NCBI GenBank assembly: GCA_051294905.1
Contig: CM119371.1
Span: 620,001 to 684,000, forward strand
DNA length: 64,000 bases
Source of the DNA: Botryllus schlosseri
Lineage: Eukaryota
Reading direction: 5' to 3'
Under the pieces are notes generated by a model. That model saw only the letters and a program-made list of their open reading frames with translations, was not told the DNA's origin and ran no database searches. The translations under genes were made by a program, and so were the position numbers. Shown here piece by piece: positions 1,701 to 51,435 of the stretch (positions are counted from its first letter, which is position 1; each line of letters begins with the position of its first letter).

Positions 1701-2173
1701 TATTGCTATATATGGCCATAGCCTAATAATCTGTCATTTTTAGTTTTCTTTTGATCCGAGATACCACTTTCATTTGCACACTTACTTTAAATTAGTAGCG
1801 TTGTTTCTTCGCGTTAACGTTCCTATAATTAAAAAATTCCAATTTTTGTTCTGTTTGTTTTTGTTCATTCCATAGATACAATTTGTGATCTTTTAGTGCA
1901 AAACCATATAAGCTCAGCTGTACAATTGATATTCTGCGATATCATTATTTGATAAGGATTTTTCGGATTCTTGTATGAGATTTTCGGATAATGTCGGATA
2001 GTTGGATGAGATTCTTCGGAGTCGGACGGATAGTTCCGCAGACACAAAAACTGTCGGACGGATTCGGATTCTCAAAAATCAACATCCGCTCATCACTGGT
2101 GTGCATACGCCGCTGGACATTAGAGGTAAAGCAATAGGCTTTCAATACCTTCTAACTTTGCACTGATTCACTG

Positions 2174-3455
2174 CCGAGGTGGTTAGTAACGAAGTACTTC
2201 TACTTTTTGGAAGTACTCAAGTAGTTTTCCTCTACTTCTTGTACTTACTCAAGTGGATTTAATTTTCTCTACTCCTACTTCTACTTCGTGATATTTGGTG
2301 ATCTACTTACTTACTTTTCGCTATTTTCAGTTTGTCAAGTAGAAGTAGTTTCACCCCCCCAATCCGAAATGTAGCCTGAGGAATTTCGGGGCTGCTTTCA
2401 CGAAGTACCAATATTTATTATTCATAAAAGTCAAGTAAAGCCAAGAATTTTTGTTTCGCATCGCGCACAGTAGTTATGTAGAGACAAATATGTTTTCACG
2501 AAAGTATCAGTGAATATAATTTGAGTACCGGATTGCTTGGTTCCGCTCACACCGCATTGTCGCGCATATCAAATATTTCATCACAGTAAATATGGCCCAC
2601 CACATTCCATTTGACACTATACCCTTTTGCAATCTAGCAATTACCTATCATATCGTAATCTAGCTGTAGCAGCCCATTACGTGCCTTGCTAATCTGGAAA
2701 ATCCAGTCCTTTGAAACTTTACACCTGTTTTAGCAGATCACCCTCGAAGCTTTATGGACGAATAAAGACGTGAAATATATTTTCCGCTTTTTAGAAGTGT
2801 TATTTGTATTTCACTTTCAATTGCGAATATCATCTTTGAGTTATAATTACTTTCAGTTCTTATGTCTGCAGAACATACATGTGGAAGCATAAAGCAAATG
2901 TAGTAACGCCTCTATTTTCCGACACCAAACATAACTTTTACAATCCACAATATTTTTATTAACGTATACTAATCGCGCAAAGTGATGAAACCGTGTCCGA
3001 TACAACTTCTACGTATTGCTCTTCGCCTAAAGTTGGGGCCTTATAATATGGGGCAGGGCGCCATGCAATGATATTCTCTAAAACGGCGTCCTCTAGTAAA
3101 CAATGGGTTAGTATCGCATTTTCATATCAATACTATAATTGGCATCCCATGATACGAAAGAATGCTTATTCTGTCGGAAATTGATACCTCCTGGGATTCG
3201 TCAATACAAATCAAGCTCTTCGCACCTTCTGCATAACTCAATTTGCAGCTTTTGACAGTCCATGCGAACGAATTAAGACTGTTTTCAAAACTACTTGCTT
3301 ACTTGAGTAGATTTAAAGTCAGTCAATGCTACTTCTACTTCAAGTAGTTTTCGGTGCCTTGTTGAAAAAGTACTTCTACTTGTACTTGATTAGATTTTTT
3401 CGTCGCTACTTCTACTTCTACTTGAGTAGCTTTCTTGACTACTTTGACCACCTCT
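2174..3455. mobile_element. Non-autonomous hAT-type element with CTACTT/AGTAG subterminal repeats
   Basis: Ends GAGGTGGT...ACCACCTC flanked by duplicated TTCACTG. The paralogous site at ~38955 has a single TTCACTG (empty site). Confidence 0.75.
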
Positions 3456-4643
3456 TCACTGTGCCATCCCTGAATGTTTAATGCCAAGCGGCAACCAACG
3501 CATATCAGTTTTACTAAACAGTTCTTATGTCTGACACGGTCGGGGATTGAGACACGACATAGCTGGCAAGCACCTGGCCGCGCCATCATTATGCTATCTT
3601 GTCTGTTAGGAGTTCACGGACCTTTAATTACCTCGAGCCGATGCATCACGGCAGTTCTTTTTAACAATGAGTCAGAAATTCCAACGTTACATATGGTAAT
3701 ATCCAACGATCATAATAATGTTTATTCCAATTACCCCTGACGAGTGTCAGCCTAACATATTCGAGTTCATTTCAATACACCGTATTCAATCGGTCAACGT
3801 TCCTGTTTACTACCATCAAAAGTCAGAACGTGCCACTCAATGTTTGCTTAATTCTGATTAAAATCATTGCCTCGGTCATAAATTACGCCATAAACTGATA
3901 TCACCGAATGCGACATCTAAAGCTTTTTATTGCTGATTGCCGTGTACTGTACACATTATGAGCAAGACGCTGCTCAACTAAAGTAAACATTGTTTGTGAG
4001 TGCTGTTGGACGAAACAGATATCAAACTGCATGCCATTGAACTAGATTGATATATATAGCTACTAGGGATGATGTAACCGCGAGGCTAACGCTCGCGATC
4101 TGTGTGTGAACCTGAGAAATTTAGAGGTTCACGTTCACAAACGAACCTTGGTAGGTTCTGCACTGTGAAACTTTTGAATATATTACAATTTTTAACATCA
4201 TTATAACATCTTTGGTAAAAATTCTTTGCATTACAATTTCGGGCCACTCTATGCGTGGCAATGGCACTGTCAGCATAACAAAAATCCACACTAAACTAGC
4301 ATGCACCTTGTCAATCTCAAAAATTTAATTTGCTTTGTTACAAAAGTTTGCTTGCAATATTCATATTTTCGTTTGTGAATATTTATTATCTCTCTGCAGT
4401 GAGCTTGGTCAGCAATCACACGACACATAGAGCGAAATCCGCTTCATGTAGGTAGTCAGCGAAGGATGCTTATTCAACCAATCAATGAAATTGATAGAAA
4501 GATAACATCATTGTCTGACGTAAAAATTCTAGCAGGCGTACGGAACCCATCTTGATTTGATATGTTTATTGTATCATAAAAACAAATCCGTGCGACTAGG
4601 GTGTTGTCTACTTAGTAATTTGTTAATGAGGTAATATCGGTAG

Positions 4644-5857
4644 CGGAGTTGGATCAATTGTAATTTGTAATCAAGCTGAATATAATTTTTTACATCATAT
4701 CAAGTAATTGTAATTGTAATTGAAGCATTTCTATTTTGTGTAATTGTAATTTATTGAAATTTTGCCGAATTACAATCTCAATTACATTGACAATCACAAC
4801 ATATAATAATTAGCCTATTTTTATCGATGTTCTATACGTGCCTCGTTAACTGGATAATTCAGCCATGCTAAACTGTTTGCCATACTTCATTGGCAACAGA
4901 AAACGTAGCGAATTACAATATAGGCTAAACCAGTGGTTCTCAAACTGGCGGCCGTGCCCCCTTGTTACGCGTGAAAGTATCTGATAGGAGGCGAGAAGCT
5001 CCGATAAATTGAAAAATTTCACCGCGCTTGCTGCGATTTACCTTCATTTCATAGTTATTGCTCTGTATATAGTACGAATTTCATATTGGAGAAGTCTCTC
5101 ATCAACAGTCATAACCTTCCATACCATCAAACTATCTGTAAGGATTTCCAACATTCTAGTTTCATTATGTGATATGACGATAAGGGAGGCACAAAATATT
5201 TCACTGTCATAAAAAAAAAGCTAAAAAAAAGTTTGAAAACAAGTGGGCTAAACTAAATCCTAATGTTTCAAAAATGGATAAACAGCAAATAAACTCTTGT
5301 GAAACCCGTGACGAACCATTTCCTACACCACGGTCATAGTTTTTCGTTTAAATCTCTGACCAGTACTGAGTCTTGTTGCAACAATTGCAAAAAGAAATTC
5401 CAGTTTTCAACCAAGGCTTCATCAAACTTGATCACGCATTTTTTAGAGATGTTATGCCAATCTTGACCAAATTTACTGGGGCCCGAAACTTTCCGCACCC
5501 CAATGTTCATCAAATACAATCTAACAGTTTTTGAGCAAGTGAAAATGTAAATGCGAACCAAAATTTTGTAATTCGTAGTTAATATCAGGAGCTTCTTTCC
5601 TTTTGCATTTAATTTATTTTAAACACTTTATCATTATCATCGTTATAGCTGACGACTTACCAATTACATTTAATTTGCCTTACTCAGCTTTGTGTATTGG
5701 TTTGACTATATTTCACTGCCGGTCTTATAATTGTAATTATAATTGTAATTGTCATTAATAACATGTTTAACAGTAATTGTAATTTGATATTTTTAGCATT
5801 GAGTAATTGTAATTGTAGGACTAATTGAGCTGAATTAATGTAATTGATCTAACTCTG
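4644..5857. mobile_element. hAT-type MITE with (TAATTG)n subterminal repeats
   Basis: TIRs CGGAGTTGGATCAATT / AATTGATCTAACTCTG; perfect 8-bp TSD ATCGGTAG (4636-4643, 5858-5865); empty site at ~41005. Confidence 0.9.
4931..5245. mobile_element. hAT-type MITE nested in 4644-5857
   Basis: Ends CAGTGGTTCTCAAAC / GTTTGAAAACAAGTG; 8-bp TSD GGCTAAAC (4923-4930, 5246-5253). Confidence 0.85.
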
Positions 5858-7429
5858 ATCGGTAGTAAGTATTACATCAACCCGTTTCACACTCCTCTCA
5901 ATATCAATGTAGTAATAGTGAGGCGCAGAATACATAGTCCGATCTGGCCTCGACCCTCAAGGCGTAAGCTTATATTCCCTTGCAAGTCCTTGTCGAAATT
6001 GTTGGCAAAGCAACGGAATATATTGATTTTATTGGATTATTATATCATTTGATTGCTTCGGTTCATACATTTGATGACGTTTAAAAAGTGTCGCCTGAGT
6101 CGTCGCTAGGTATGATGTACATTAATATATATCACTTCACTGAAATTGAGGGTTGGAATTAGCAATATAACGACGTCAAGTGAAATAAATTTCAGCTTCT
6201 TAAAATGCTTTACGTTTTGTTCTCCCGAAATCTCAAATCCGATCGCGGGTCGCAAAATATGACACCGAGGGCCGCATGCCACGTGTTGGTGACCCCTGCC
6301 ATATATCTCGAGTAATGGACCGACCAATGTATAGATATCATTGGTCGACATAATAAAAAAAGTCATAAATGAAGTGAAATCCACAATGCGAATGCTCAGG
6401 TGGGTCATTCGGTCCAATGGCGCTGAAAAAATTGACCTTTTTAAGGGTCAACACTAGAAAAGTACACCGGATGACTATGGCATAAAGTGGACAATCCGGG
6501 AGTCGAGCCGGAAATAATAACCTTTATTGTTATCCAACACAATAAAATTTTAGAAGCAGCAGTTTTCTAGTCCGACAATCTAATTTTTTTTTGGTTTTAA
6601 AAAAGTAATAGGTGTCCTCCTTTCCGGATCCCAAAATAAGGGAAGTCCACTGTTGATGGGGGAGGGGATTTTTCTGCGTTGGGGTGTCAAACCAGGTATG
6701 ACTGCTGAAATATGTTGTTTCAATTTATTCTGATCGCTATTCTTTAGAGATCACGCGATAGCTGAAAGCGATTCTGGAAGTCACGTCCTGACTCCACTGG
6801 ACCATGCAATGGTTTGAACACGGCTATCAAGGACCGTTTATTCCAGAGGTGGGCATAGTAGTCATTGTTGGTACTGAATAAGTAAAAGTAATGTCCTAAC
6901 AGTTCAGCTTAATGCGAGTTTAAATTTCCAAGTATTCTAGTATTATTTTGGTTGAAAAGCAACACGTACCTGGGTGTACTTTGTTACTGACCTACTCTGC
7001 GATGGTAGACATACCTAGGTCTTACTTTCTACTCCAATGGTTTTCAAGCGTGACCTATTCATCTTGTTAAATTACCATATTTTTCAAGCCCATTCATGAC
7101 CAACTATTATCTATTTTTCAGCCCTTATGCGCATCCTATCTACGTTCATTTCTAGTCCTGAAAGAAACAAGTGTGCATCGACCGAGGCTGCTGTGATTTC
7201 GATTGAAGCTGTTCTACTGACAATGATCCTACCTGCTACTGACTAAAATACACCGCGTCAACTTGCAAACTGTGTTTATTCATCCATACGGGGACAGGAG
7301 GCAGTGTAAGTATAAGACGACTAAACTACGGAAATATCGTAATCAAGTGATTACACAGTTAGTTATAAAGCAACCAGACGCGACTAGCAATATGTGGTAG
7401 CTTCGTAAACAGATATGACAGGTTTGCAG

Positions 7430-8560
7430 TTTTTGTGACTAGACTCTACTCGCGTCAATTTGTGAAATATGGTGTATAACCTGACTCGATTTGCGGCAAT
7501 TTGTGTATTGACTCGACCTGTACTCGAGTCAATGAGACTGACTCGACCAAGCCATAAAACTCGAGACTCGGATGGCCAAGACGGGCATTTAATTGTAACT
7601 TCGAAGAATAGTAAGCTACCACCATATAATACTTAAATATCAACCAAACAAAGTTGTAAAAACGCGAGTTAAGCAGGATTGAACCGAATAATGAGGTGCA
7701 AACACAATGAATTGGACTCAGACTCAATTATCAACACTGTGACTCGGCTTAAGCCTTTGAACTCTGACTATGACTCGGTGGTGAATTGAAAATGACTCGA
7801 CTCGTATCGAGTCAAAAATATGAAAGTAGAACTAACTTGTGACTAAGGACCTTGTGACTTGGTGAGAAGCATGAGACACAGCTTACGACCCAAGTGCAAA
7901 AATTAATAAAAGCGGCCTTGAACGAAAGGTACTGCTGATTTCGAAAATATAAATTATAATCTGGTCTGGACGCTGTAACGCACCCCAAAATTACCATGAA
8001 ATTAATAAAACTCGACATGGTTTGGCTGCGACAAAATGATCACATTAATGACCTGATATGGCTTTCATATTGTTCGCTACAAAACCCGAATTCAAGGTTT
8101 GCAATCAAGTCACGAGGTTCCGGGTCCCAATTCGATCTTACTTTTACAGTTTTACCTCGAGTAAGTCAAGTGAGTCATTTTCAATTCATCATCGCCTCAA
8201 GTTTGAGTATTGGTGCAGAGGGTCGAGTCCATGTCCCAGTCACTGTGTTCACAGTTCAGTCTAAAGTCCACGGCATGATCAAACCAATCTTTTACAACTA
8301 TGCTTGGGTGATATTTAATAACCAGTGTTCATAATATCCTGATTTTCATTATTCTTAACAATTTTTGACCCTAATTTTATTTACGAGTACTGATGGACGA
8401 AATTCCAATAATACCGAACTTTACTTTTTCTAAGTTAAAACGAAACTCCGTTTCGGCTGCTTGAGTTTTGAGTCATGTGACTTGGTCGAGTCAAGCGAAA
8501 TGACTCGACTCATATTCAGCATGTAAGAAATTGACTCTGGTCAAGTCGAGTCACCCACAC
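7430..8560. repeat. Decayed MITE copies rich in TGACTCGAGTCA/TGACTTGAC motifs
   Basis: Dense GACTCGA(G/C) palindromic motifs. Related segments occur at 43640-44720 and 60500-61000, and similar motifs occur in the elements at 11660 and 39941. Confidence 0.6.
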
Positions 8561-8869
8561 TCGAGGTATTTGTAGCTTCATATGATTTCCAATTGTGCCG
8601 CCACGTGACGTGCATGTATCAGTAGGTTGTGTGTAGCGTTGGGAGAAAAGGACAACTCCCAAACCAGTCGCACTTGGGACCATTTTGCGGGTACGTTTTC
8701 CACTCGTACCACAATTTTGCTGTTTTCGGTTTCGTATGATTCTTCATCGTTGGCTGTCATACGGACTTTGCCTTGAAACGGAAGTATAGTCGCATCTGAG
8801 GAATAGGTAGGTCGAATGTTTTTTCCCAATCTGCAATCCAGAGTTCTGTAACGTTCTCTGTCTTTTCAT

Positions 8870-9021
8870 ATGAGCGACTGAATATTCCGAGACTTTCTCT
8901 TGAAACTTGGCGATTTGGGTTTGATTTAACATTGTTTCATTCGACGAGTCAATTTCCTGCTCTTAGCTTCTGCTTTGAGAGAAATTTTGCTTTACGCTGT
9001 CCTTTGATTTCGAGAGCTTCC
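8870..9021 (-). pseudogene. RBM28: RBM28-like exon remnant following RRM4 (paralog ~44790-44942)
   Basis: Acceptor ttttag|G then EALEIKGQRKAKFLSKQKLR. The phase completes the Arg codon (AG|G) left by the ...LENR exon. The 3' boundary is uncertain. Confidence 0.5.
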
Positions 9022-10926
9022 CTAAAATGTAGAAATCGGTTGACTTGAGCGGGAAAAATAGCCCTCGTATCACAGTAACTTGATCTATTTTCTAAAATAG
9101 CACTAACTGTTGCGCTAGGCACAATGACCAGAGGACTCGCATCTGAAATCAGAATTAACCCTACCAATTTGAGTCAACTAGAGAAATTATTTGTCTCCTT
9201 ACCAATACGACTGTGCAGAATCAAGTATTACATATTAGGCTTCACACGCAGTGGATATTCGAGTATCACTCATTATGACGAAATCCCAGTATGTAAGATG
9301 TCAAAGTTCATATAGATACCTTTTACGCTACTACAAAGAATATAAGAATATATTGAAAAGAATATAATGTCTGTACTTTGATATTTAATCCACAATACCT
9401 AGCTCATTGCACTTTGTGACAATACTGTGGGTCGATCATGACTTAAGAAATATGTTAATCAAAATAACATTCATAGCTTTTTACTACATGTTCTGTAGGC
9501 TCCGATACGGCCAGTCGAGGTTTCAATGCTCCCACAGTTGAAAATACCGTCAAAACTATAATTCTCATTGTTCAATTACATTTCATAGGCAAGGAGCGAA
9601 AAAATATCAGGACTCCGAAAATTTCACTTCCCGACTCAAATCATTATATATATTATTCGAAGCAGATTCGAGTATTCGTATCATCGTGACCAGCCCTACT
9701 AACCAATATGTGTTCATTGTTCATTTATTAACTAAACTTATCATTTCGATCGTATTTCCACTGTGGAAGCCTTTCTGGAAGCCCCTGGAAGAAAACTTTC
9801 TTGGTAATATAACAGCATACAAAAGCTGTTGTACAAAACTACGTTAGCCGGAAGGAGATATCTGTAAACCCGCAGCATTTGCAATGAAATAGGCATGGTC
9901 GACAAAATACCATATCATTCTTAATATGACGTAGAACAGGCATTACATTCTTTGTGGTTGCATGAAAGGTACATATTTGCACTTTCCACATTTCCCACAC
10001 CCCTACGATGTCAGATGTAGTGGTACTTCACCAAACGCCTAATATTCGATTCATGGTCAAATCACTCAGCCACTCGATTTTCACAACCCTGCCAATGAAT
10101 ACTACAAGGAGATTGTCAGTAGCCATCAACTCTCACAAAACATCATGTTTCAATAATGAGTGTCAGTATCTCAAAATCTATTCGGGTGGCCAACCTGTTC
10201 TAAATCTTATTAAGAGCGTTTTCTTTCACATATTATTTCAGGCTTCACCGAGTATAATATGATTGGCTGGTATGCAGACTTGTACAAGCTACCGATCTAG
10301 TTAGTTGACGGTCAACTTGCGTCATCGTTTGACGTGAATCGTGATCCCGCGCTTTATTGTGTGATGTTCTTGCAGACATTTCTAGCTCAGACTCATCACT
10401 GCAGAGACTGGCGTGGCCAGGCTGTTAGGAGTTTACAGCTTCCCCATTTCAACTAGGACAAACTACTTCGTAAGCACAGACAGTTCCAAACAGAAGTGAA
10501 GATAGGTAGTGCAATTCTAACGTTATTTGGGAAAACACCTAGTTTGCATATGATAGGTCAAATTTGTTCAAAATTAGGATTTTGAAGGTCAAAAAATGTT
10601 AGTTTTGATTTTTTAGGTCACAATGTTTGGTTTTTTAGGTAAAAGAATCAACCTAGTCAAAACCATCCATGTCATCAAACTCTCCGTTGGGACTGCCAGC
10701 ATTCTGATTGCATTTGTGACATGACGATAATGGGGGCGCGAAATTTTTCACTATCAAAAAGGGGGCGTGTCAAAGAAAATTTGAGAAACACTGTTATAAA
10801 TCTAATTGAAGTTGCAAGTTTTGCAAAGAGAGTACGGATTTCTGAAATCTAGTAGTTTGTTGAAGTCTGGGTACAGCACCTGAATAGTGGTTTAAAAGTA
10901 CCGTAAGCATGAACAAGTCTACCAAC

Positions 10927-20663: not shown

Positions 20664-22986
20664 TCACTGGCCTTTGATAAGAGTAGACTTCCTGCTGTCT
20701 CCAAAAATCTTCCTATGCTGTTCCACAGCTTGAAGCAAACTGTCTCTTTGCTGTTCATTGTCAGTCAAGATTGCAGCATAGTCTGTGCTTAGCTTGACAC
20801 CTCTTTCTGCGGCATCATTAACGACTTTGACAGAACTAACGTAGCAATTCATTTTATTGAATGAATCTGAAAAGTGCCAATCATCAACCGGTTGACGCAG
20901 CCAATCCCCAGAACATTCAAAAACTTCAAATATGTACCACGACTGGGGCCCAATAAGGTCAGACAACTGTCCTTGTTGATCTGTATAGTTGCATTCAATG
21001 AGGGTGGGCCCCTTCTGAAACTGGAAGTTCGCTCTACTTGCAGGAGCGCCTTTGCCATATTTTCCCGGGTTTCCTTGCTTTCCGTCGGTGAAAACAAGGC
21101 GTATACAGCGGTTTCCTCAACAATATACCAGTCGTGCTTCAAAAGCTTTCGTGAAGCAGCTGTGGAAACTTGCTCATCATATTCCTTATAACTCAACATG
21201 TGCTGAACGAATCTCAAGTCATTACCAGCTGCATCACGACCAATGCTTGAATCTACCCACGCAGGGATATAAAAGAGAACCAAAAATAAATTGAAGCGGC
21301 GCAGCAGTTCAACTTCTTCAGATTTGTAATCTAATTGGTCGGCCCACATGAACATCTTTTGAGCATACAGAATTGTACCCATCCATCTCGCATGGTGTGC
21401 TGCACCAGGTTTGTGATGACGTATATCTTCATCTGCACCGAGAAGAGCAAGAGCATTAGTCACACATTGCTTGTAGTCATCCCGTGTGAAAAAATCTTTT
21501 CTGTTCAACAGTAGCTTGAACTTATCAACTATCATTGCAGCTCGTTCAGCAAAACATAGAGGAATAGTCAGAGTCTTGAATTGCTGTTCCCTGTCAAGAC
21601 TGCTCCAGTTCCTTTTAAGGTGGGCAAACCATGCATTCTCTGGTCCAGTTGTGGCCTTTCCAAATAAAGATTTCCAAACGTCTTTCACTACCAGCTCATA
21701 CACATGGTGCCGACATGCATGGTAGAACACCTTCCTTCCTAGAAGGTCTTCAAGAATCTTTGCCGCACCCTTCTTCCAGCCGCTGTTGCTTGCTGTAGTG
21801 TCAAAAACCAAAGCTGTAACAGCATCTTTTATATTCCAACTTTCAATTATGTTGAAAGTGGTTTCTGCTTGCGTCTGACCTGCAGCATTTTGCATCTTTT
21901 GAATGCCAAGTAGTTTTCCTTCTGAGTATTGAGGATGACAAGATAGGACAATTGACAGAGCCTCATACCGATTTCCTAATCTATCCTCTGTGAGCTTTCC
22001 ATCCAATGAATAGCAACATGTTGAGGTTTATTTTCTGCAAATTTTTCTGAAATATCCTTGGAAATTTCAAGACGATTTGTTTCCCTGGCTCTCTTTGTCG
22101 AAGATCTTGACAGAGAGAACATTGCTATGTCACCGCCACAAGCCGTAATAAATGCTCCGATCAGCATTGTTGCCTTGTTGTCTGTTATTTGCAATCGATC
22201 CAGAGCTTGGGACACATGGGTATTATTCATAATATTTTTAGGTGCCATCAGCTTAATGGCTGTCGAGGTGCCAAGACCAACATCAGCATCATAATCAGAA
22301 CTTGAACTCAAACTATCACCCTCTTTTGAAGATGAAGAAGATGCTAAAACAACATAGTCATCACTTGAGTCATGTTGAATGTTTTTAACAGTTCTATCCG
22401 CCATGGTTGCTGTTTTCTTTTCGATGTCTTTAGCGAGAATCTTGTCTCTTCCAAACATTATGCATTTGCGAGATTGCTGTTGATCTTCATAGAATGCAAT
22501 GTCTTCGAGCTTTCTATCACGTGATAGATAAATGTCATTTTGTATTATTGCTATCGCATCTGTACTTCCAATATCCCACAACTTGTCCAAATCTTCCGTG
22601 AATTTTTTCCTCTTACCCTTGGGATCACTTTCCCGTTTCATGGTCGCCTTCAGAAAAATATATTTTTTGTTCAGTTTTTCAAGTAATTTCACCGCATTTC
22701 CTTCAAGTATTGTGGCAATTCTCGCCATTTGCCACACTGTCATGACATCATGAACCACCACATTACATAGCTCACGAGTAGGGGTTGACTGAGGGCAATG
22801 GTCTTTCAGATGCAGAAAGTAACTCATTACCTCTCGCAAGGTTGGTAATCTCGAGCCACAGATGTAATCGCAAGCATATCCGACCAAGTAATGCTCAGAT
22901 CGAGATCTTGTTCTTCTCTGTGGCAAGTGCACAGTCTTCCGCCGTTTTACCTCTGCCATGACAGTAATATTTTTGCCTTCTATCAT
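20664..22986 (-). pseudogene. hATm-type transposase, ~770 aa, split by two frameshifts (~22006, ~20968)
   Basis: Three overlapping ORFs join into HW/DGKL, FDTTASNSG, ACRHHVYEL, PGAAHHARWM and VVNDAAERGVKL motifs. Confidence 0.88.
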
Positions 22987-23018
22987 AAATTACAGCTACG
23001 CCTAAAACATTTAAGTAA

Positions 23019-26300: not shown

Positions 26301-28557
26301 CACTGCAACTCATAGATAAACTCTGTCAACAATAACGCATATTGAGCAAGTCGTCAAGCGGCATAGCTAGACATATACTCTTTATTTGTTTCCGTTGATT
26401 TCCGAAGATTACATTGAAATGGGTGGGTTGAAATGGTACACATAATGTATGTGGCAAGTCCAAACTTTACAGTGGCGAATGATCGAAGTAACTCGAAATC
26501 CGTAATACGCAACAGTGAAGTTAGACCAGCGAATACGGTCTGAAATGATCACAAATTATTGAATGCTGGACCAAGTATTATCCAGCTATGTGGGCGGTGC
26601 GGCCACCCCCCAAGTCTTTGGTAACAACGAAGAGTACGGTGAAAAAAATTAGGCCATCGCCATTATGCTCGTAAGATCCACATCGAAACATGTAGGCCAT
26701 AAGATCATGAAATGAGCTCACTTTCATATTTAATTACGCATAAGTCATCGGACGGTACGTACCGTTTGTTTGCTTTCGTAAGATGGCAGAGTTAGAGTAG
26801 GGCAAAGGCTGAAATTGTAAAATAGCCAAAATTTATGGATGTGTTTAAGTCAACTATATTATGGAAATAATAGTGCGGTCGCACTCATATTCGCTCCAAT
26901 ATGTATGACATTTTTTCACATTAGCCTACGAGTTTTGAATCCGACGCTGATTATTATTGACTGTGTGCAAAGCAAGCATATACATTGACAATACACGGTG
27001 AATTTTTGCGATACAAGATTTGAGTAGGCATGCTGATTTCCCAGTAATTAATCCGACTACCAACGAAAATATTTTATGTGGTAAAATGTTTGTGCATCCT
27101 TCGGACATTGATATCTACAATGAATATAAATTCGTTAACTTGACTAGCTGTACATACGATTCAATCCACGTGGCAGAAAGTCACACATGTATGAAAAATG
27201 GCGTATACATTTATCTCAGTCAACGAGATATGTTGGAGCAAGAATCGGAACGACATAATTTGTTTGCTCCCGCTGATTTCGCGGCATTACGTGGACGTGG
27301 GCGGATTGACATTTTGCTACAGATTTATAATGTGACAACTTTGCAGCGTCGAGTTGACAGCAATTCAGAGTTCGTAACATAGACAAATTGATACTGCGAT
27401 TACGGAATGAAAACTTATCTGATTTTTGAAAGCGAAACTGAACATCACTGTCTGTGCTGGCAGAACGGCTGCCTTGATAATCTCTAAATTATTCAAATAG
27501 TAAAAAATACGACCAGGCAGAAACCAATGATGGATCACTAGAAAAATTTCGGATTTTTCAAATTATATGAAAATTAGAAGTATATAGCTGCGAATTTTTT
27601 TCAAACAAGACCAACATTTGAATAGTAGCTGCTATGTTGGTAATCCGAAATATTTTTTAAAAAAAGGTTCCAAGCCCGTGGTTGTTACACTCCGCATAAG
27701 TGTCAATTTCATGCACATAACCTGCGCAAGCATATAATGTAATAAAGGTAGTTTTCAAAACAAATGTTCGTTCTATAGGTATCACGGCATTAATATATAA
27801 TCGAGCATATCCCCCGTAACTTTATTATAAGTTGGAAACAACACAATTTCTCACTGGAAATTCGTCTGATAATTTACTGGTCGTGGCTTATCTTCAGACA
27901 ATACGCCTTTACGAGCTATCGTATTTTCTGATAGGCATATATGTTGCTACCATGTAAATTCTCAACTTAACGTACGCTATGCAAGATTGGCTTTCAACGC
28001 AATACGATAGTCGAGAGGCTCATCGGTTGCCTTTTCTAGAGCAAGCTGACCGTTATTTACTCACAATCTAGCAAACGTTCCGTTCTAATAAACTAGAGCG
28101 ATCGAACGTTCCGTTTATATGAGTCGATATAATTTCATGAAGTGGACCTCATCATCGAACTACCAATGCTTTGCGATTTCTTTTCATTGCATTTTTTTTA
28201 TTCTCAATTCCACTATTACAGATGTTGCGAAATATTTTTCATGAAGACGCATTACCAATTGCAGCTACGACTATGAGCACATGTTTGCTAGCTACTGCCT
28301 AATTTAATTTCATCGACAAATGTCATCATGATGTAAAATTCAACGTGTTCTACAAATAGCACGTGGATCATGAAATGGAAAATTATGTATGTCAGCAGGG
28401 AAGCATGCGAACCCCAAAAGCATCGGAGACAGTGTTGTCATGGCATAGTTTAGGTTTAGGTGCATCTATGTCAGTGTTTCTTAAACTTTTTCCAGTCGCG
28501 ATAACTGACTTTTATAGTCAAATATACCAGCATTATAAGCAGGGTTGCCATACCGTC

Positions 28558-28799
28558 TATTGCGACGCGGGAATCGACTTCTATATCGGACGAGCAAGCA
28601 ATCTTGTGAATCTCGCGATTTAACTATATTATGAACAAGCTATTCCGTATTGTATGTTCTGGACTGCTTGTATTTGAAACAGATGAGATTTGAGATACAC
28701 AACGCTTGCTAGTACCCATTGCCAGATTTAGTGTGCAGCAGACAGGATCCCGACACCTGATAAAGCGCCACTCATCGATTTCAGTGCCGCGTCGGAACA
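28558..28799 (+). repeat. 5' LTR (242 bp; lacks 163 bp present in the 3' LTR)
   Basis: TATTGCGACGCGG...CCGCGTCGGAACA; two mismatches to the 3' LTR over the shared part. Confidence 0.95.
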
Positions 28800-28809
28800 A
28801 TTCACAAGA
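28800..28809 (+). promoter_or_regulatory. Putative self-priming primer-binding site
   Basis: ATTCACAAGA directly abuts the 5' LTR and is the exact reverse complement of TCTTGTGAAT at 28602-28611. It has no TGG (tRNA CCA complement). Confidence 0.55.
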
Positions 28810-28958
28810 AGCCTATTTAAGCCGATATCTTCGATACGCTCTTCGATTCAGGCACCGCATGTGCAGTCTACATTCAAGGCTCTTCTGCCCTACGAAGAGC
28901 GATCGACCCTGCTCGTCACTAAATCTGTTAATACTTAAGGAGTTTCGTTACGTTTGAG

Positions 28959-29630
28959 ATGTCGTTTGTGAAATCTCCAACGGATTCTCACAAGTCTCCA
29001 ACCTTGGCACCGACCTGGAAGCCACTAGCTAAGATGACGGTCGACGATTTACGAGCCGAGTTACAAGTTCTTGGCGAAGCTACCAGTGGAAGCAAAGCTG
29101 TATTGACAGAGCGATTAAGAAAAATCCGCGATTCCAACAAACCCTCGCAAAAGAAAGAGTCGACGCCCTCTCCATTGAGCACCACTGAAAATCCATCTGA
29201 ACTGGTCATGCTTTTTCAGATGATGAAGCATCAGCAAGATCTCGATCGCCAGCAGCAGCAATTAGATCGTGAAGCTGATCGCCGGCAGCAGCAATTAGAT
29301 CGTGAAGATGCCGACCGCAAGTTTCAGTTGCAGCTTGAAGAGCTCAAGCAGAGACAGGTGCTGGAGCGTGAGGAAAGCGAAAGACGGTTTCAACTGCAAC
29401 TGGAAGAAATTCGGCAGAAGTCATTAAAAGACCAACTCAACTCGGGCCACCCATCGGCAAGTAACGGCGATCCATGTCTACCTGAGGTCATTATAAGAAA
29501 ATTCAGACGTATGCATGCCGAAGTTGTCGAGTCTTTGCAAGCGCTTGAAAATAAATATCGGAACCCCACCTCTTTCGAAGAGATCAACGTCTTCATACGA
29601 TCAGTAGATATAGCAATGACCGATCTCTAG
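28959..29630 (+). CDS. Gag N-terminal part: SAP domain and Q/E/R-rich coiled coil
   Basis: LAKMTVDDLRAELQVLGEATSGSKAVLTERL is a SAP consensus. Same frame as the downstream ORF, separated by a single TAG. Confidence 0.8.
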   Translation: MSFVKSPTDSHKSPTLAPTWKPLAKMTVDDLRAELQVLGEATSGSKAVLTERLRKIRDSNKPSQKKESTPSPLSTTENPSELVMLFQMMKHQQDLDRQQQQLDREADRRQQQLDREDADRKFQLQLEELKQRQVLEREESERRFQLQLEEIRQKSLKDQLNSGHPSASNGDPCLPEVIIRKFRRMHAEVVESLQALENKYRNPTSFEEINVFIRSVDIAMTDL

Positions 29631-29696
29631 ACATTCGTTGATGCCAAAATCGACCAGCTTAACGATGGTGATTTAAAGACTGAAATCGTTGATGGC

Positions 29697-32600
29697 ATGA
29701 GAAGTTCGAAAGAAATTTATCTGGCACACCTCCCTCTTGCCAAATCGAAATCTGCATCACTTAAAGCTGCCGAGGATGCCGAGAAAGCCGCCGGATCGCT
29801 CCCCAGTGGAATAGTGCCACCTACATTCAACGGCGACATTTTGACATTTCCCTCATTTTGGGAGTCATTCGAGCCGCTGGTTCACGAAAATCCAAAGGTC
29901 AGTCGGTTTTACAAAATTACTTATTTAAAGGCGGCTCTCAAAGGATCGTCATCCGGCCTTCTTAATGGGTTCCCTTCGACGGCCGTGAGTTATGAGCCTG
30001 CCGTGGACGCTGTCCTTAAAAGGTACGGGAAGAAACAAGCCATAGTGAGAAATCACATCAAAGACTTGCTGCAAGGTGAGAAAGTCGAATTTAAGATCGA
30101 TAAAGTCAGGAGGCTACTCGATGCCGCCACTGCAAAAAGGGCGATATTAACGCAGTATGACGTCTCTTGGGACCAACTGTTTACACAGGTACTCGAGTTT
30201 CAGCTGCCGGGTACGCTGCGCGAACGTTGGATCAGGAAAATTAGTCCTATGATCGATGACGATGAAGTTCCTGATTCCGATCTCTTGTTCGAATTTCTGA
30301 CTACCGAGTTGGCGACGATGGAGTCCTTGCAGTCGCAGAGTGGGCGTCGCCCTACTGACGCACGTGACAAGCCGCAACATAAAGATAAACTGACTAGTTG
30401 CGTTGCCGGTGAAGTTGAAAAATCGTTTTCTGCGCAATCCCTGGTAACGCAATCCGTAACGCCATGCTGTAGCTACTGCTCGAGTCCTCATATGTTAAAA
30501 TACTGTGACGAGTTTTTGAATTTGACTCCCCCCCAGCGAATGGCTGACTTGGTCATGAATAAGCCTGGAAAAGTATGTTTCAGATGCTTATCTCCGAAAG
30601 GGCATGAAGGTCATCCGAAGACATTCCACCAATGTAAGGAGCGTTGTTCCGTCGTGGGCTGTGGGAAACCCCACCACGAATTGCTACACGTTTCTGGGGA
30701 ACCATTGGGCGACGTCAAGTGTATGGTTTCAACCATTGGCAAGCCTCTTTCCGCCCCTGTTTTGCGAGATGCGGACATCGACACATTACTGCCCACTGCG
30801 TTAGGAAGCATCAACCACAATGGCGAAAGGAAACAGGTTAGAATCGCATTCGACTCTTTTTCCCAGAAGAGCTTTGTAACCCGTGGACTAGCAGATTCGT
30901 TGAAGCTAACGCCAACTAAAAGCGATTGCGTGGACATTAGTGGATTTGGAGGTAATTCTGCTTCAAGTGTTGTGGACGTTGTAAAATTCACGCTAGAGTC
31001 CACTGATGGCTTCGAAAACGTTAGTGTTGAGGCTTACGTTCAAGAAGGCGTGATTTGTGCGCCTTTAAGAAATGTAGATCTGTGCGCTAGTCAAATTTCT
31101 CACTTAGACGGTCTGAACCTTTCCGACCCCCTTCCAAGGAATAATTGGACCATTGATATTCTTCTCGGAGGGCGATACTATTTTTCGCTGATGCAGGGAG
31201 AGGTGATTAGTCCTGATGTTCCGGAAATGGGGCCTTATGCGATCAAAACTATATTTGGCTGGGTGTTGGCGGGTCCTTGCGTTAAACTGGAACAAGATAG
31301 GAGTAACACCTCTAGTTGTCTACTTCTCACAACTACACCAAATCACGATTCATTGAAGTCAGATCCATGGCAGTCGTTGAACGACAAGTTGGAAAGATTT
31401 TGGGATCAAGATAGCATCGGTATTTGTGACAAGAAGACTATTCCTACTGCAGAGGAACGGGATGCCGTGGAACAGTTCGAAAGGTCGGTTCAGTTTGACG
31501 GCTCTAAATACGTTGTTTCCTTGCCATTCAGACGTGACGTGCCGGATTTGAAATCCAATTACTGCGAGGCCTATTCAAGATTGCTTTCAGCAGAGAAGAC
31601 GCTGCGTAGGAATCCTGAGAAGTCGCGAAACTACGACGCCGCAATCATGGAATATGAGAAAAACGGGTTCTCGAGAAAATTAACTCAGGACGAGTTCGAA
31701 GAAATTGGTAAGCTCCCTCATTACTTTGTCCCGCACCACCCGGTATTCAAAGAATCCAGTACCTCCACTAAGCTTCGCATAGTATTCGACGCGAGTGCTC
31801 GAGATTGCCAAGGTATGTCACTGAACGACTGTCTACTCAAGGGGCCGAACTTACTACCTGATATTGCGTCAGTGTTACTTCGTTTTCGTACTCACAGGAT
31901 TGCGCTCAGCGGGGATATCAAAAAGATGTTTTGCCAAACAGGTGTTGTTCCAGACCATCAAAGGTACCAATTATATCTTTGGCGTAATTGTGACTCTACT
32001 CGACCACCCGATGTTTATGTTATGACCCGGGTTATGTTCGGCATTACCTCCAGTCCGTTTCTTGCAATTCATACCATTCTGCATTACTCTCGTTTGCAGG
32101 GAAAGGATGCGGAAATTTCGAACATAATTGAGAAAAACATGAACGTAGACGATGTTCATCTTGGCGGCGATAACGTTGACGAAGTACTCGCATTGCAACG
32201 CCGATTAGTTGATTTCTTTCGGGCAGGTGGATGGACGTTGGTCAAATTTGGATCGAATAGCCGTGAGTTGATCGAACAAATTCCGAAGCACGCACGATTG
32301 CCAAACTGCGAGCTGGATTTAGACGATGCTAAGTGTGGCGAAGCCTCTTCGTTAGGGCTGAAGTGGCATACTCTTGATGATCTGATGTATTGTAATGTGA
32401 CTCCAAAACTCTGCGAACAAGACAAATTGGTTACTAAAAGAACCATGCTGAGCAAAGTCAGTCAAATTTATGATGTTTTCGGGTATTTTGCAGCCTTTGT
32501 AGTTCGCGTCAAGATTCTTCTCCAGGATTTATGGAGAAAGAAATTGGATTGGAACGATGAAGTCGATGAAGTCACAGCCACCAAGTACCGTCAATGGACA

Positions 32601-34730
32601 GAGGAACTGGCCTCGCTTGAATCTATAAAGATACCAAGGTATCTATTCGTTGGGCTTCTTGGTTTGAAGAACATTCAACTCCACGGATTCGCCGATGCAT
32701 CTGAAGCCGCTTACGGCGCCGTCCTATACCTCAGAGCCATGGACGAGGAAGGTACAGTAGTGATTCGTTACCTGATGTCGAAAACGAGAGTCGCTCCTTT
32801 GAAAGCGATGTCCGTTGCGCGACTAGAACTAATGTCGGCACATTGTCTCGCTAAACTAGTTCGGTATTGCTTAGACGCTTGGTCCTCGGTTCTAACTGTC
32901 GACAACATTTATTTGTGGTTAGACTCGCAGATTGCTCTCGCCTGGCTCGCCAAGCCGAGTACATACTGGAAAACCTTCGTCAGAAATCGAGTGCAGGAAA
33001 TACATGATCTTGTCTCGCCGGACGCCTGGCGGCATTGCCCCGGTTGCGAGAACCCAGCAGACCTACACAGTCATGGCATGAGTCTCCACGACTTGAAGTC
33101 GAGTAGCGTATACTGGTATGGACCGCATTGGCTAGTTGAGGACGAGTCATGTTGGCCAACAAAAATTTTCCCTAACAATATGACTTTGGACGCCCCGTTG
33201 TTGGAAAGTGCAAGTAATGTCCTTGTTGCTCATATTAAAGATTCGGTTCCATTTTTTGAGAAAGATTACAGCGACTTCAACAAGATCGTTCGTATCACCG
33301 CGAGAATTCTTCGTTGGAAGAATCGCAACTTTTCGGCATTGGACCCGCATTGCGACGACGTCCTAATTGGACCGAATGAGTACAATCTTGCCAGAGATCA
33401 TTTATGGCGCCTCGTACAGCGATCCGAATTCGCAGGCGACTTCGACGATCTTCAAGGTGGTAAAGACGTGTCGCGTAAGTGCATATTTATCAACATGGAC
33501 CCTCAGTACGATGATGATCGCAAATTAATTGTAGCAGGAAATCGTTTGCTACTATCCGATTTACCGGAGTGTGCGAAACATCCCGTAATACTTCCTTCAA
33601 AACATTCTCTCGTCGAAAAATTCATCTTGCATGTTCATACTACGAATTCCCACTCTCCACAGGATACCACTATTGCAATCATCCGCGAGTATTACAGTAT
33701 TATCCATATTCGGGGCGAGGTTAGGCGAGCCCTACGTAAATGTATCACATGTCGACATTGGCGCACGAAACCCTTGACCCAGAAAATGGGAATACTGCCC
33801 CCAGAAAGAATTTGTGTAGCTCCTGCATTTTCAGAAGTGGGTCTTGATTTTACGGGACCCGTTTATATCGACACTGGTACCAAAACTATGCAGAAGGCGT
33901 ACATCTGTCTGTTTACCTGTCCCCACAGTAGGATGGTTCATTTTGAATTAACGAACAGTATGTCAACTGAAGAGTTCTTAGCTGCATTGAGACGCATGAT
34001 GAACCGAAGAGGTTGGTGCAGAGAGATAATCAGCGACAACCAGAAAACCTTTAAGAAGGCTGAGAAGCTCATCAGACTATCCATCCGTGCGCTATTCAAA
34101 GGTACTGCTGATAACGAAAAATTGCAGAAATTCATGACCGACAATGGTATCCACTGGAAGTACATAGTAGAGCGTGCGCCCCATCGCGGAGCGTTCTACG
34201 AGAGAATGAATCGCTCCCTCAAAGAGCCACTCCGGAAGATATTAGGTAAGGCCAGTCTAACCTACGTTGAAATGTATGCCGTACTTACAGACATCGAATG
34301 CGCACTCAATCAAAGGCCGCTGACCTATTTGGGAGCCGACTCCCGGAATCCGCAGGCTATTACGCCGGCTCATCTCTGCATTGGACGTCCGCTCGGTCAA
34401 CTACCGTACTTGCCTACACGCGCCAACATTACGAAGCGGTTCCGATATCTGCAGACACTGCTCAAACACTTTTGGACAAGGTGGAGCAAGGAGTATCTAC
34501 CTTCGCTGCTTCGACGAAACAAATGGAACATTCAGCAACGAGCCCCAAAGATAGGAGATGTTTGCCTTATTGCAGAAGACGGGCTAAATAGACCGAGTTG
34601 GCTCACGGCACGAGTCATCGATACGATTGAAGGCAAAGATGGCCTTGTAAGGACGCTCAAGTTGAAAACGGCAAAAAGTATATTGACTCGTCCCATTCAG
34701 AAAATTCATCTGTTGGAACCTGTTGACTGA
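29697..34730 (+). CDS. Bel/Pao Gag-Pol remainder: Gag core, Cys/His knuckles, aspartic protease, RT, RNase H, integrase
   Basis: PTFNGD..FPSFWESF; C..C...H...C and C..C.KPHHELLH; FDSFSQKSF and DILLG; PHHPVFK, KLRIVFDAS, SLNDCL.KGPNL, DIKKMF, FGITSSPFLA, NVDD; LHGFADASEAAYG, RLEL, NPAD; GLDFTGP, SDN, YER, GKDGLVR. Confidence 0.95.
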   Translation: MRSSKEIYLAHLPLAKSKSASLKAAEDAEKAAGSLPSGIVPPTFNGDILTFPSFWESFEPLVHENPKVSRFYKITYLKAALKGSSSGLLNGFPSTAVSYEPAVDAVLKRYGKKQAIVRNHIKDLLQGEKVEFKIDKVRRLLDAATAKRAILTQYDVSWDQLFTQVLEFQLPGTLRERWIRKISPMIDDDEVPDSDLLFEFLTTELATMESLQSQSGRRPTDARDKPQHKDKLTSCVAGEVEKSFSAQSLVTQSVTPCCSYCSSPHMLKYCDEFLNLTPPQRMADLVMNKPGKVCFRCLSPKGHEGHPKTFHQCKERCSVVGCGKPHHELLHVSGEPLGDVKCMVSTIGKPLSAPVLRDADIDTLLPTALGSINHNGERKQVRIAFDSFSQKSFVTRGLADSLKLTPTKSDCVDISGFGGNSASSVVDVVKFTLESTDGFENVSVEAYVQEGVICAPLRNVDLCASQISHLDGLNLSDPLPRNNWTIDILLGGRYYFSLMQGEVISPDVPEMGPYAIKTIFGWVLAGPCVKLEQDRSNTSSCLLLTTTPNHDSLKSDPWQSLNDKLERFWDQDSIGICDKKTIPTAEERDAVEQFERSVQFDGSKYVVSLPFRRDVPDLKSNYCEAYSRLLSAEKTLRRNPEKSRNYDAAIMEYEKNGFSRKLTQDEFEEIGKLPHYFVPHHPVFKESSTSTKLRIVFDASARDCQGMSLNDCLLKGPNLLPDIASVLLRFRTHRIALSGDIKKMFCQTGVVPDHQRYQLYLWRNCDSTRPPDVYVMTRVMFGITSSPFLAIHTILHYSRLQGKDAEISNIIEKNMNVDDVHLGGDNVDEVLALQRRLVDFFRAGGWTLVKFGSNSRELIEQIPKHARLPNCELDLDDAKCGEASSLGLKWHTLDDLMYCNVTPKLCEQDKLVTKRTMLSKVSQIYDVFGYFAAFVVRVKILLQDLWRKKLDWNDEVDEVTATKYRQWTEELASLESIKIPRYLFVGLLGLKNIQLHGFADASEAAYGAVLYLRAMDEEGTVVIRYLMSKTRVAPLKAMSVARLELMSAHCLAKLVRYCLDAWSSVLTVDNIYLWLDSQIALAWLAKPSTYWKTFVRNRVQEIHDLVSPDAWRHCPGCENPADLHSHGMSLHDLKSSSVYWYGPHWLVEDESCWPTKIFPNNMTLDAPLLESASNVLVAHIKDSVPFFEKDYSDFNKIVRITARILRWKNRNFSALDPHCDDVLIGPNEYNLARDHLWRLVQRSEFAGDFDDLQGGKDVSRKCIFINMDPQYDDDRKLIVAGNRLLLSDLPECAKHPVILPSKHSLVEKFILHVHTTNSHSPQDTTIAIIREYYSIIHIRGEVRRALRKCITCRHWRTKPLTQKMGILPPERICVAPAFSEVGLDFTGPVYIDTGTKTMQKAYICLFTCPHSRMVHFELTNSMSTEEFLAALRRMMNRRGWCREIISDNQKTFKKAEKLIRLSIRALFKGTADNEKLQKFMTDNGIHWKYIVERAPHRGAFYERMNRSLKEPLRKILGKASLTYVEMYAVLTDIECALNQRPLTYLGADSRNPQAITPAHLCIGRPLGQLPYLPTRANITKRFRYLQTLLKHFWTRWSKEYLPSLLRRNKWNIQQRAPKIGDVCLIAEDGLNRPSWLTARVIDTIEGKDGLVRTLKLKTAKSILTRPIQKIHLLEPVD

Positions 34731-34742
34731 CTACTGTCGGTC

Positions 34743-34759
34743 AAGGGGGGGGGGGAGGA
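34743..34759 (+). promoter_or_regulatory. Polypurine tract
   Basis: AAGGGGGGGGGGGAGGA immediately before the 3' LTR. Confidence 0.9.
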
Positions 34760-35164
34760 TATTGCGACGCGGGAATCGGATATTTCGGCGACAAGCATTT
34801 CGCGGCTAGTCGGTTTTCACGTCGGTCTTTACGTCCAATCGATTGATTGTTATTTAATTTGATTGGTTAATTTAATTGTCGCGGCGTCCGTTCTCGTTTT
34901 TCTTCATGTCTCGCGGTTCCTGTTTCATTTCTCGCCAATCGACTTCTATATCGGACGAGCAAGCAATCTTGTGAATCTCGCGATTTAACTATATTCTGAA
35001 CAAGCTATTCCGTATTGTATGTTCTGGACTGCTTGTATTTGAAACAGAAGAGATTTGAGATACACAACGCTTGCTAGTACCCATTGCCAGATTTAGTGTG
35101 CAGCAGACAGGATCCCGACACCTGATAAAGCGCCACTCATCGATTTCAGTGCCGCGTCGGAACA
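34760..35164 (+). repeat. 3' LTR (405 bp)
   Basis: Begins TATTGCGACG after the PPT, ends GGAACA before the TSD. Confidence 0.95.
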
Positions 35165-35699
35165 CCGTCCTTATTTCTAAGATTTGTCCTTATTTTGAAG
35201 GGCCACGTCTTAGAAAACTCGACTGTCCTTATTTCTAAGAAATGTCCTTATTTTCGACTTGCGTCCTTATTTTGTCTTATTTTCAACCACTACAAAACTT
35301 CGATCGTTTTCTTCTGGTATCTATGTTGCATGTTGCATAATATTCTAAAATTAAGCTTATTCGTCGAGATTTTATCACATAAATGAAAGGAACTCTCGTG
35401 ACGTACACACCACAAGATTTGACTTCTAAATGGTGAGATAGCTAGAGCAGTGAGTGGGGGTACAGCAGTTTCGGCTGTACCAAGCTACCGCAGCGGACGT
35501 CATTTTAACAGTAATGCCTGGCTATTGCTGTTTGGTGCACAGCAGAATAAGCTCAAGCTGTGGGGAAAGCCGCATTTATTGCGTAGTGAAAAAAGGCGCA
35601 GTGCAGTCGATACATTGGTTAAAGAGTAGTAAAGCTCTAAATCATTGATAAGTTTCTCCAAATTATATTGCACTTGCGCATATACTTTTAAATCTGATT

Positions 35700-49071: not shown

Positions 49072-51435
49072 CACTGGTCAACAATTTTTTTTTCGTTTCT
49101 TGTTGCATGAGATTTTTTAACTGATTCTACACAATTTTAGGATGCTGATTTCAAATCTGCAATCAGTTTCTTTATGCATGCTCTAGTTTTCATGCAATCG
49201 ACAATTTAATATTTTTTCGTTAGTGGCACATAGGCCTATTTAGTGCATAAATCTGATCTGCATCGAACACTTTTTATCCATCCAGCCCTTTTTCATTTGA
49301 AGGTCCTGGAATCATTTTGTGATATCTGTGGTGTATATAGTGTACACGCTTGTCTCGTCAAAGACGTAATATAACATCGTTCGTGAAGGGTGCCTACAGA
49401 GCTTACTTTGACATCCATCTTGGCGATCAAGATAGGAAATGGTCTCCACATGTTGTGTGCCATAACTGCGAAGAAATGCTCAGAGACTGGACAAAAGGAA
49501 AGCGGAAGAGTCTGCCTTTTGGCATTCCAATGGTGTGGCGTGAACCCCAAGATCACACGACTGACTGCTACTTTTGCATGGTAAATACAAAAGGTGTTGG
49601 CAGGAAGAGCCGACAAATGCTTTCTTATCCAAGTATACCATCAGCTATACGACCTGTTCCGCACTCTGATAGATTCCCTCCTCCAGTCTTTAGTGGTTTT
49701 ACATTTTCTGAAGATGTGGAAACTGAAGCAAAGGGAAGAGGTTATGGAAATGGAGTATAAAAGAACAGATACAGGATCTGAATCTGAACATTCTTCTTGT
49801 GAAACCAGAGTAGCTGTTCAGCAGTTTAATCAATCAGAACTGAATGACTTCGTACGTGATTTAGATTTGTCCAAGCAAGCAGCTGAGCTCTTAGCCTCCA
49901 GACTCAAGGAAAAACAGGTTCTGGATCAATCTGTAAAGGTATCCTTTTTTCGAATAAGAGAAGAACTCTTTCTTCCCTATTTTTCAGAGGAAAATAAGCT
50001 GGTATTTTGCAACGATATACCTGGTCTTCTCGGACAATTGGGTATCTCCTCGTATGATCCAGGAGAATGGCGATTGTTTTTGGATAGTTCCAAGCGCAGC
50101 CTCAAGTGTGTCCTTTTACACAATGGAAATGTTTATGGAGCTGTTCCAGTTGGTCACTCTACTGTCTTGAAGGAACGGCATGATGACATTACAACTGTTA
50201 TGGGTTTGCTTAGATATCATGAGCACAACTGGATCATTTGTGTTGACCTCAAAATGGTTAGTTTTCTGCTAGGTCAGCAAAAAGGATACACTAAATTCCC
50301 ATGTTATCTATGCATTTGGGACAGCAGAGCACTTGAAAAACATTGGACACAGAAGGAGTGGCCCTTACGTGAAACATTTCAAGCTGGCATGCCTCATGTA
50401 ACACACAACCCAATCGTAAGCAGAGACAAAATTGTTTTTCCGCCCCTGCACATCAAACTAGGTCTCATGACACAGTTTGTTAAAGCTCTAATTCCTGACT
50501 ATTAATCCTTTCGTCATCTTCTTCATACTTTCCCTGCTTTGTCATATGATAAAATTAAAGCAGGAGAGTTTAATGGACCACAGATACGTACACTTATTCG
50601 TAACCAAAACTTCATTCAGAAAATGAATGTCAAGGAGAAAGCTGCATGGCTATCTTTCGTAGATGTTATAAAGAATTTTCTTGGCAACAGAAAGGCTCCA
50701 AACTATGAAACACTTGTATCCAAGATGCTCTCAGGGTTTCGTGATTTAGGATGCAACATGAGCATAAAAGTACATTTCCTGTACAGCCATCTGGACAAAT
50801 TCCCTGAAAACCTTGGGGCTGTCAGTGATGAACAGGGAGAGCGTTTCCACCAGGATCTCATGACAGTGGAAGAACGCTACCAACGTCGGTGGGAGCGACA
50901 TATGATGGCGGATTATTGTCGGGGCATCAAACGTGACTGTCCTCAAAAAGCGTACAAACGCATAAGTTATAAGAGGAAATTTTTTCCAGGGTTGTACAAT
51001 AATTAAATTTTTTGCATCTTTTCATCGATAGCTTTAAGTTTATACTGTGGATTGTCATCGTTCTTTTCAATGTCATTTTGCAACAAAAACTCGCTTATTA
51101 CATGTATTTTACCAGGAAAAATGTTCTTTGTTACATTTTTTCAAACATTTGGTGCCAAATTGTCTGTAAATAGAATTGCTAGTGGTAACACAATCATTTC
51201 TGGGAACCTATTATTGTTTTGAGGTTGGCTATTCGACTATAAGCAAGAACGTCATTTGACAAATCATGTAATTTTTCAGAAAATTTGAATTTAGTAAAAA
51301 TAAAATAAAAAATCTGTATTTGCAAAAAATCTAGACCTTCCAGAATAAAACTAAGGTCAGATTTGGATTCAGCGCCCCCAAATTAGGTAAGAACAAGTGT
51401 TGGTAGAAATGCAACAAAATTTTTGTTGACCAGTG
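49072..51435 (+). mobile_element. Chapaev3-type (CMC superfamily) DNA transposon
   Basis: CACTGGTCAACAA / TTGTTGACCAGTG termini; 3-bp TSD TAA. The adjacent tandem copy (GATTCCATAATC at ~51663) shows the empty site. Confidence 0.88.
49300..51006 (+). pseudogene. Chapaev3-type transposase with frameshifts and one in-frame stop (50503)
   Basis: FCDICG, WSPHVVCHNC, PMVWREP..H..DCYFC, DSSKRSLKCVLLHNGN, DLKMV, LHIKLGL, SDEQGERFHQD. Confidence 0.88.

Follow-up and report, generated by a model that had tools for sequence, protein, structure and literature searches.

The element at positions 28558 to 35164 of the window (the whole 64-kb stretch of DNA that was analysed; features are on the + strand unless stated) is a Bel/Pao LTR retrotransposon. 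It belongs to a Bel/Pao family with many copies, of which it is a young one, and this family no longer has the tRNA-type primer binding site (PBS) seen in its relatives. The most likely primer of reverse transcription in this sub-lineage is the element's own RNA, a reading that is put forward tentatively, with confidence a little short of even. Self-priming had been proposed in an earlier note on this DNA. That proposal is supported by the exact match abutting U5, the multi-copy leader without a tRNA site, and the tRNA-type sites of the relatives. It is not supported by the pairing across the family, which in most LTR copies is broken by a C at position 28607.

The assignment to Bel/Pao is confirmed by Pfam matches to Peptidase_A17 (4.1e-45), DUF5641 (5.7e-28), and DUF1759 (4.2e-21), along with rve and Integrase_H2C2. 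ORF2 (29697 to 34730, 1677 aa) encodes a gag-like DUF1759 region, an aspartic protease, RT/Peptidase_A17, an integrase, and DUF5641, and 1586 homologues have the same sets of Pfam domains. The LTRs, the short target duplication, and the polypurine tract before the 3' LTR are also those of a Bel/Pao element. In the available text of the ICTV profile, the PBS of Bel/Pao (Belpaoviridae) is described as complementary to the 3' end of a host tRNA (PMC8742986), and no such site was found in the element. Pfam finds Pao-type domains only, with no chromodomain. The element is not a member of the Tf1/sushi group and at most works like one.

ORF1 (28959 to 29630, 223 aa) has a SAP domain (1e-08) and is in the same frame as the gag-pol ORF2, the two being split by a single TAG at 29628 to 29630. 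This TAG is either a premature stop in the window copy or a readthrough stop. The homologue P0007 (1986 aa) has SAP and gag-pol joined in one protein (BLASTP 2e-16 over ORF1). Together with the element, P0002, P0007, P0013, P0017, and P0022 represent a Bel/Pao clade in which an N-terminal SAP (DNA-binding) domain, followed by glutamine/arginine-rich repeats, is found upstream of DUF1759. The closest proteins share 45-58% identity with the element, several of them having a fused SAP, and the closest named hosts among the homologues listed are a limpet and a nemertean (41-42% identity). Elsewhere in the window there are three stop-to-stop open frames of 306 to 392 codons, at 20849 to 22989 (- strand) and 49585 to 50505 (+ strand), none of which has a Pfam match at E 0.01 or better.

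The 3' LTR (34760 to 35164, 405 nt) is directly preceded by the polypurine tract AAGGGGGGGGGGGAGGA (34743 to 34759). It forms a direct repeat with the 5' LTR (28558 to 28799, 242 nt), with 99% identity between 28572-28799 and 34937-35164. The start of the element at 28558, as given in the earlier note, is upheld by the opening 19 nt of the 5' LTR (28558 to 28576), which are a 100% match to 34760 to 34778 right after the polypurine tract, and by the 5 nt target-site duplication CCGTC, present at 28553 to 28557 and again directly after the 3' LTR at 35165 to 35169. The LTR has the terminal inverted repeat TATTGCGACGCGG...CCGCGTCGGAACA. The 5' LTR ends at 28799, where the 5' and 3' copies cease to match after ...GGAACA. 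A misplaced LTR boundary was considered and is ruled out by the polypurine tract, the terminal inverted repeat, and the target duplication.

Compared with the 3' LTR, the 5' LTR is missing 163 nt of U3. This segment (34779 to 34941) is bounded by AATCG microrepeats and is found only in the 3' LTR. In runs X1, X8, and X22, the contig and read ends that hang loose upstream of 28572 have the 3'-LTR form, therefore the long U3 is the norm for the family. Since the public contigs and RNA reads carry the long U3, the loss of 163 nt is a deletion that occurred in the 5' LTR after insertion. There are only two substitutions between the LTRs (28631 and 28684), both on the 5' LTR. No second copy or solo LTR was found in the window.

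At the position of a PBS, directly after the 5' LTR, is the 10-mer ATTCACAAGA (28800 to 28809). It is, as the earlier note had observed, the exact reverse complement of TCTTGTGAAT, the proposed self-primer, which is within the 5' LTR at 28602 to 28611 and is present as an exact match in the 3' LTR at 34967 to 34976. The T at 28611 pairs with the A at 28800, so that the end of the primer would be exactly at the U5 boundary, as had been claimed. The flanking bases on both sides are unpaired; thus the helix is 10 bp, with 28611:28800 as its last pair. The TATA-like CTATAT at 28581 to 28586, a putative promoter 20 nt before the LTR 10-mer, was found as described. The reported lack of a TGG for tRNA pairing also holds, there being none on the + strand from 28780 to 29004, which leaves the CCA end of a mature tRNA nothing to pair with near the LTR. 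Two features of the self-primed type are seen here: no site for a tRNA 3' end follows U5, and the site adjoining U5 complements the element's own LTR (10 out of 10).

The 10-mer and its reverse complement have three matches in the window; in 100 shuffles the mean was 0.36 and three matches were reached once. At 71 of 56,381 other window positions (0.13%), the local 10-mer has an exact reverse complement in the preceding 242 nt, and a match of at least 9 out of 10 is present for 79 of 6,000 sampled window positions (1.3%). Very many windows were screened, so a single chance match at 0.13% is not negligible. The 10-bp duplex is the best that can form between the LTR and the leader, at -11.1 kcal/mol. 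It is present in both the minimum-free-energy and the centroid folds of 28600 to 28830, where it closes the whole LTR-leader domain. This 231-nt fold is no more stable than those of shuffled sequences (z 0.18).

Copies of the family from two RNA runs and two DNA contig sets were aligned to 28400 to 29400. The word depth in X1 is 61 to 138 for the flank, 1,744 to 9,627 for the LTR, and 494 to 2,907 for the leader and ORF1, with about 1,030 to 1,870 over 28808 to 28875. With the LTR and leader so far above the flank, the family is evidently multi-copy and has many extra LTRs. One contig, with a depth of 278, spans 28777 to 28908 with 3 differences. No insertion at 28799 is among the variants listed, and no sister form with a TGG site at 28799 was seen in the run contigs. 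Six X1 contigs diverge after 28799 and have a mutual agreement of only 0.5, which is what DNA flanking solo or 3' LTRs would show. That the window copy alone has lost a normal PBS is ruled out, as the LTR-leader junction is multi-copy. The leader without a tRNA site is the family norm. Having multiplied without a site for a tRNA 3' end, the family must prime in some other way.

Relatives with DNA sequence available were 80 metagenome loci (the best 80 of 353 confirmed, from 571 pattern matches) and 10 MAG loci, with 26-43% protein identity to the element. A direct-repeat pair was found around pol at 34 of the 80 metagenome loci and 2 of the 10 MAG loci. Four pairs of less than 80 nt or less than 85% identity (L010, L028, L054, and L065) were dropped, and 32 were scored. 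There is a TGG within 0 to 6 nt of the repeat end in 18 of the 32, these 18 not being independent (12 are from one assembly, with one common site). For L038 and L084 the TGG is further on, the repeat alignment having stopped early, and a further class of 10 pairs is uninformative, with the repeat cut by the contig end. L009 and L010 have ...GTACA and then a TGG-type site, the LTR identity of L010 being 71%, and an upstream ORF of L009 is weakly SAP-like (E 0.075). L072 and L077 (about 9272) are the same old Bel/Pao copy in two assemblies, with LTRs 93% alike. Their post-LTR site is one letter off the TGG-type site of L038 and so looks like a decayed tRNA site. In all 32 relatives the longest complement of a post-LTR word (offsets 0 to 3) to the LTR of the same locus is 7 nt or less, versus 10 in the element. 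The relatives that could be reached are of the tRNA type, in line with the ICTV profile (PMC8742986) and with Achilles (PMC4580426), therefore the tRNA-less state of the element is derived. Among viral contigs, the alignment-pattern search gave 39 matches of which 0 were confirmed, and the protein query gave none. The 22-nt word at the LTR end had 0 matches in the genome contigs and 0 in the viral contigs.

The LTR 10-mer is polymorphic among the copies at its sixth base, 28607. Most have C, not T, at this position: 3659.9 of a depth of 5424.7 in X1, 89.7 of 89.7 in X8 (organism B), and 16 of 18 RNA reads in X22. The C mispairs with the A at 28804 and weakens the duplex from -11.1 to -7.2 kcal/mol, which is still the best LTR-leader duplex. 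No variant in 28800 to 28813, 28804 included, is among the variants listed (40 of 83). The listed variants include some with shares as low as about 20%, so that most copies are unlikely to have a change at 28804. The earlier note had suggested covariation as a check on the pairing, and among the copies the outcome is not favourable, with C at 28607 and no matching change at 28804 among the variants listed. In the general retroviral model, the primer is copied into the site in each cycle. We infer from this that a matching change at 28804 should be common.

The short contigs cannot link the LTR type at 28607 to the leader type at 28804, and the polymorphism can be read in two ways. It may be that the T-type LTRs, about a third of the LTR depth, belong to full-length copies with the leader, and that the C-type LTRs are mostly old or solo, which fits self-priming. 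Alternatively, the C-type elements may carry the unchanged leader, with a pairing of 9 out of 10 in most copies. In that case the match is near the 1.3% chance level and the perfect match of the window copy is due to one transition. The pattern in organism B, where all of the LTR contigs are C-type and leader contigs are present (depth about 9, low coverage), leans towards the second of these. At 28617, 28699, and 28776 every X1 contig differs from the letter found in both window LTRs, so the window copy is a member of a rare sub-lineage, or else other individuals were the source of the runs.

For self-priming to take place, a segment from the 5' end of the transcript or close to it (28602 to 28611, early R) would fold back onto 28800 to 28809 after U5. 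The RNase H of the element would cut after the paired stretch, and the freed 3'-OH at the exact U5 boundary would be extended into minus-strand strong-stop DNA, after which the strand transfers would run as in Tf1. Cleavage of the primer by RNase H has been shown for Tf1. For the element, we infer the presence of the 10-mer within the transcript, the RNase H cleavage, and the priming itself. The sole primer candidate visible in the sequence is the element's own LTR word, located where the end of a self-primer would be.

The block from about 28584 to 28622, which holds the LTR 10-mer, is kept in LTR variants that have a different upstream U3 (loose ends before 28584). The TATA-like motif is kept despite the differing U3 and may therefore be the core promoter. 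The usual spacing from TATA to start in metazoans is about 30 nt; counted from a TATA at 28582, it would lead to a start close to 28612, immediately beyond the 10-mer. The initiator-like CAATCT found around 28600 would suit the self-priming model, and is a weak indication. No pile-up of molecule starts that would mark the transcription start is seen among 38 RNA reads (7 from X24 and 31 from X22). Coverage of the LTR by X22 reads runs in both directions and breaks off at the LTR end, the pattern expected from 3' or solo LTRs.

Another explanation, possible and yet on the whole doubtful, is that priming from 28800 is by some host RNA that is not a tRNA 3' end. This could be an internal tRNA fragment, a 5' half of the kind used by copia, or a different small RNA, with the LTR match a coincidence sharpened by one C-to-T change. 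The majority letter at 28607 breaks the pairing, and 28800 to 28813 is invariant among the variants listed, as a site held by a host RNA would be. At 1.3% of positions chance alone gives a match of at least 9 out of 10, and copia lineages are known to use half-tRNA priming, according to the available text of PMC6317226. However, no candidate RNA was found, with no tRNA gene in the window or in 34 related loci and no Rfam family; the Rfam search of 28300 to 29100 gave only a chance-level lncRNA match (E 0.48). No report of half-tRNA priming in Bel/Pao was found in the literature covered, and for a copy whose LTRs are 99% identical, an exact match of 10 out of 10 next to U5 has a background frequency of 0.13%.

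It is improbable that the pairing is real and acts not as a primer but as a structural or regulatory contact within the genomic RNA (leader folding, packaging, or control of initiation), with priming by another route. The closing of the whole LTR-leader domain by the helix in both predicted folds would suit such a role. Retroviral leaders, which use pairings between U5 and the leader around the primer site, are a precedent for it. Nevertheless, this gives no account of the primer, most LTR copies lack the intact pairing, and the fold is no more stable than the shuffles. There is a similarly slight chance that the complementarity is fortuitous and there is no dedicated site, the sub-lineage being either immobile or spread with the help of a related element (co-packaging, or template switching of strong-stop DNA from a tRNA-primed partner): the same runs do hold LTR variants with a different U3 and many LTRs beyond the full-length copies, and the window copy has the 163-nt U3 deletion in its 5' LTR and the in-frame TAG between the SAP ORF and gag-pol, but the junction of the LTR with ATTCACAAGA is itself multi-copy, no TGG sister form is seen at 28799, where the six divergent X1 contigs agree at only 0.5, and the window copy has LTRs that are 99% identical and a target duplication.

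Self-priming by the element's own RNA is therefore the reading that is preferred here. It may be, with somewhat less confidence than for self-priming as such, that a Bel/Pao lineage has swapped tRNA priming for self-priming independently of Tf1/sushi and of copia TAR, that the T at 28607 and the A at 28804 are a matched pair made by the copying of the primer into the site, and that co-evolution of primer and site is in progress. No report of self-priming in Bel/Pao was found in the literature covered, which is that outside the subscription journals.

In Tf1, priming by the element's own 11-nt 5' segment is established; for Tj1 and the Tf1/sushi group self-priming has been proposed, in the available text of PMC4600332. 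Like Tf1 and Tf2 of Schizosaccharomyces pombe and Tj1 of S. japonicus, the element is without a tRNA site. As in Tf1, a short site right after U5 (11 nt in Tf1 and 10 nt in the element) complements the element's own LTR downstream of the promoter, which is putative here, and the 3' end of the primer would sit at the U5 boundary. Unlike these Ty3/gypsy chromoviruses, the element has Pao-type domains and no chromodomain. The complementary stretch of Tf1 has been shown to be the start of the mRNA, whereas for the 10-mer of the element this is a prediction, and, unlike in Tf1, there is a central mismatch in the pairing of most copies of the family. Further predictions of self-priming concern the Tcn1 clade and the copia TAR lineage, the latter in a second superfamily (PMC6317226, available text). 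As described in that text, those predictions are likewise drawn from sequence for elements with tRNA-primed relatives; they concern whole clades with many families, unlike the one family considered here, whose own copies disagree.

In its gene content and order, LTRs, 5-bp target duplication, and polypurine tract, the element resembles the canonical Bel/Pao elements (Belpaoviridae, Semotivirus; Tas, Pao, BEL, and Achilles). It differs in having no tRNA site from Achilles, to which the available text of PMC4580426 assigns a tRNA-Tyr site. Like Drosophila copia and the plant elements Osser, Bryco, and Bianca, which are primed by tRNA halves, it has a site without an initial TGG. The copia site corresponds to an internal stretch of a known tRNA. 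This is also the case for the sites of Osser, Bryco, and Bianca, as given in the available text of PMC6317226.

If the self-priming reading is true, a known mechanism would extend to a third superfamily of LTR retrotransposons, and would thus have arisen in all three. This would argue that escape from host tRNAs is an easy step that recurs. Families of this kind would be overlooked or wrongly scored by annotation pipelines that demand a tRNA-type site. The family described here would be a many-copy animal family in which the primer and its site can be followed together.
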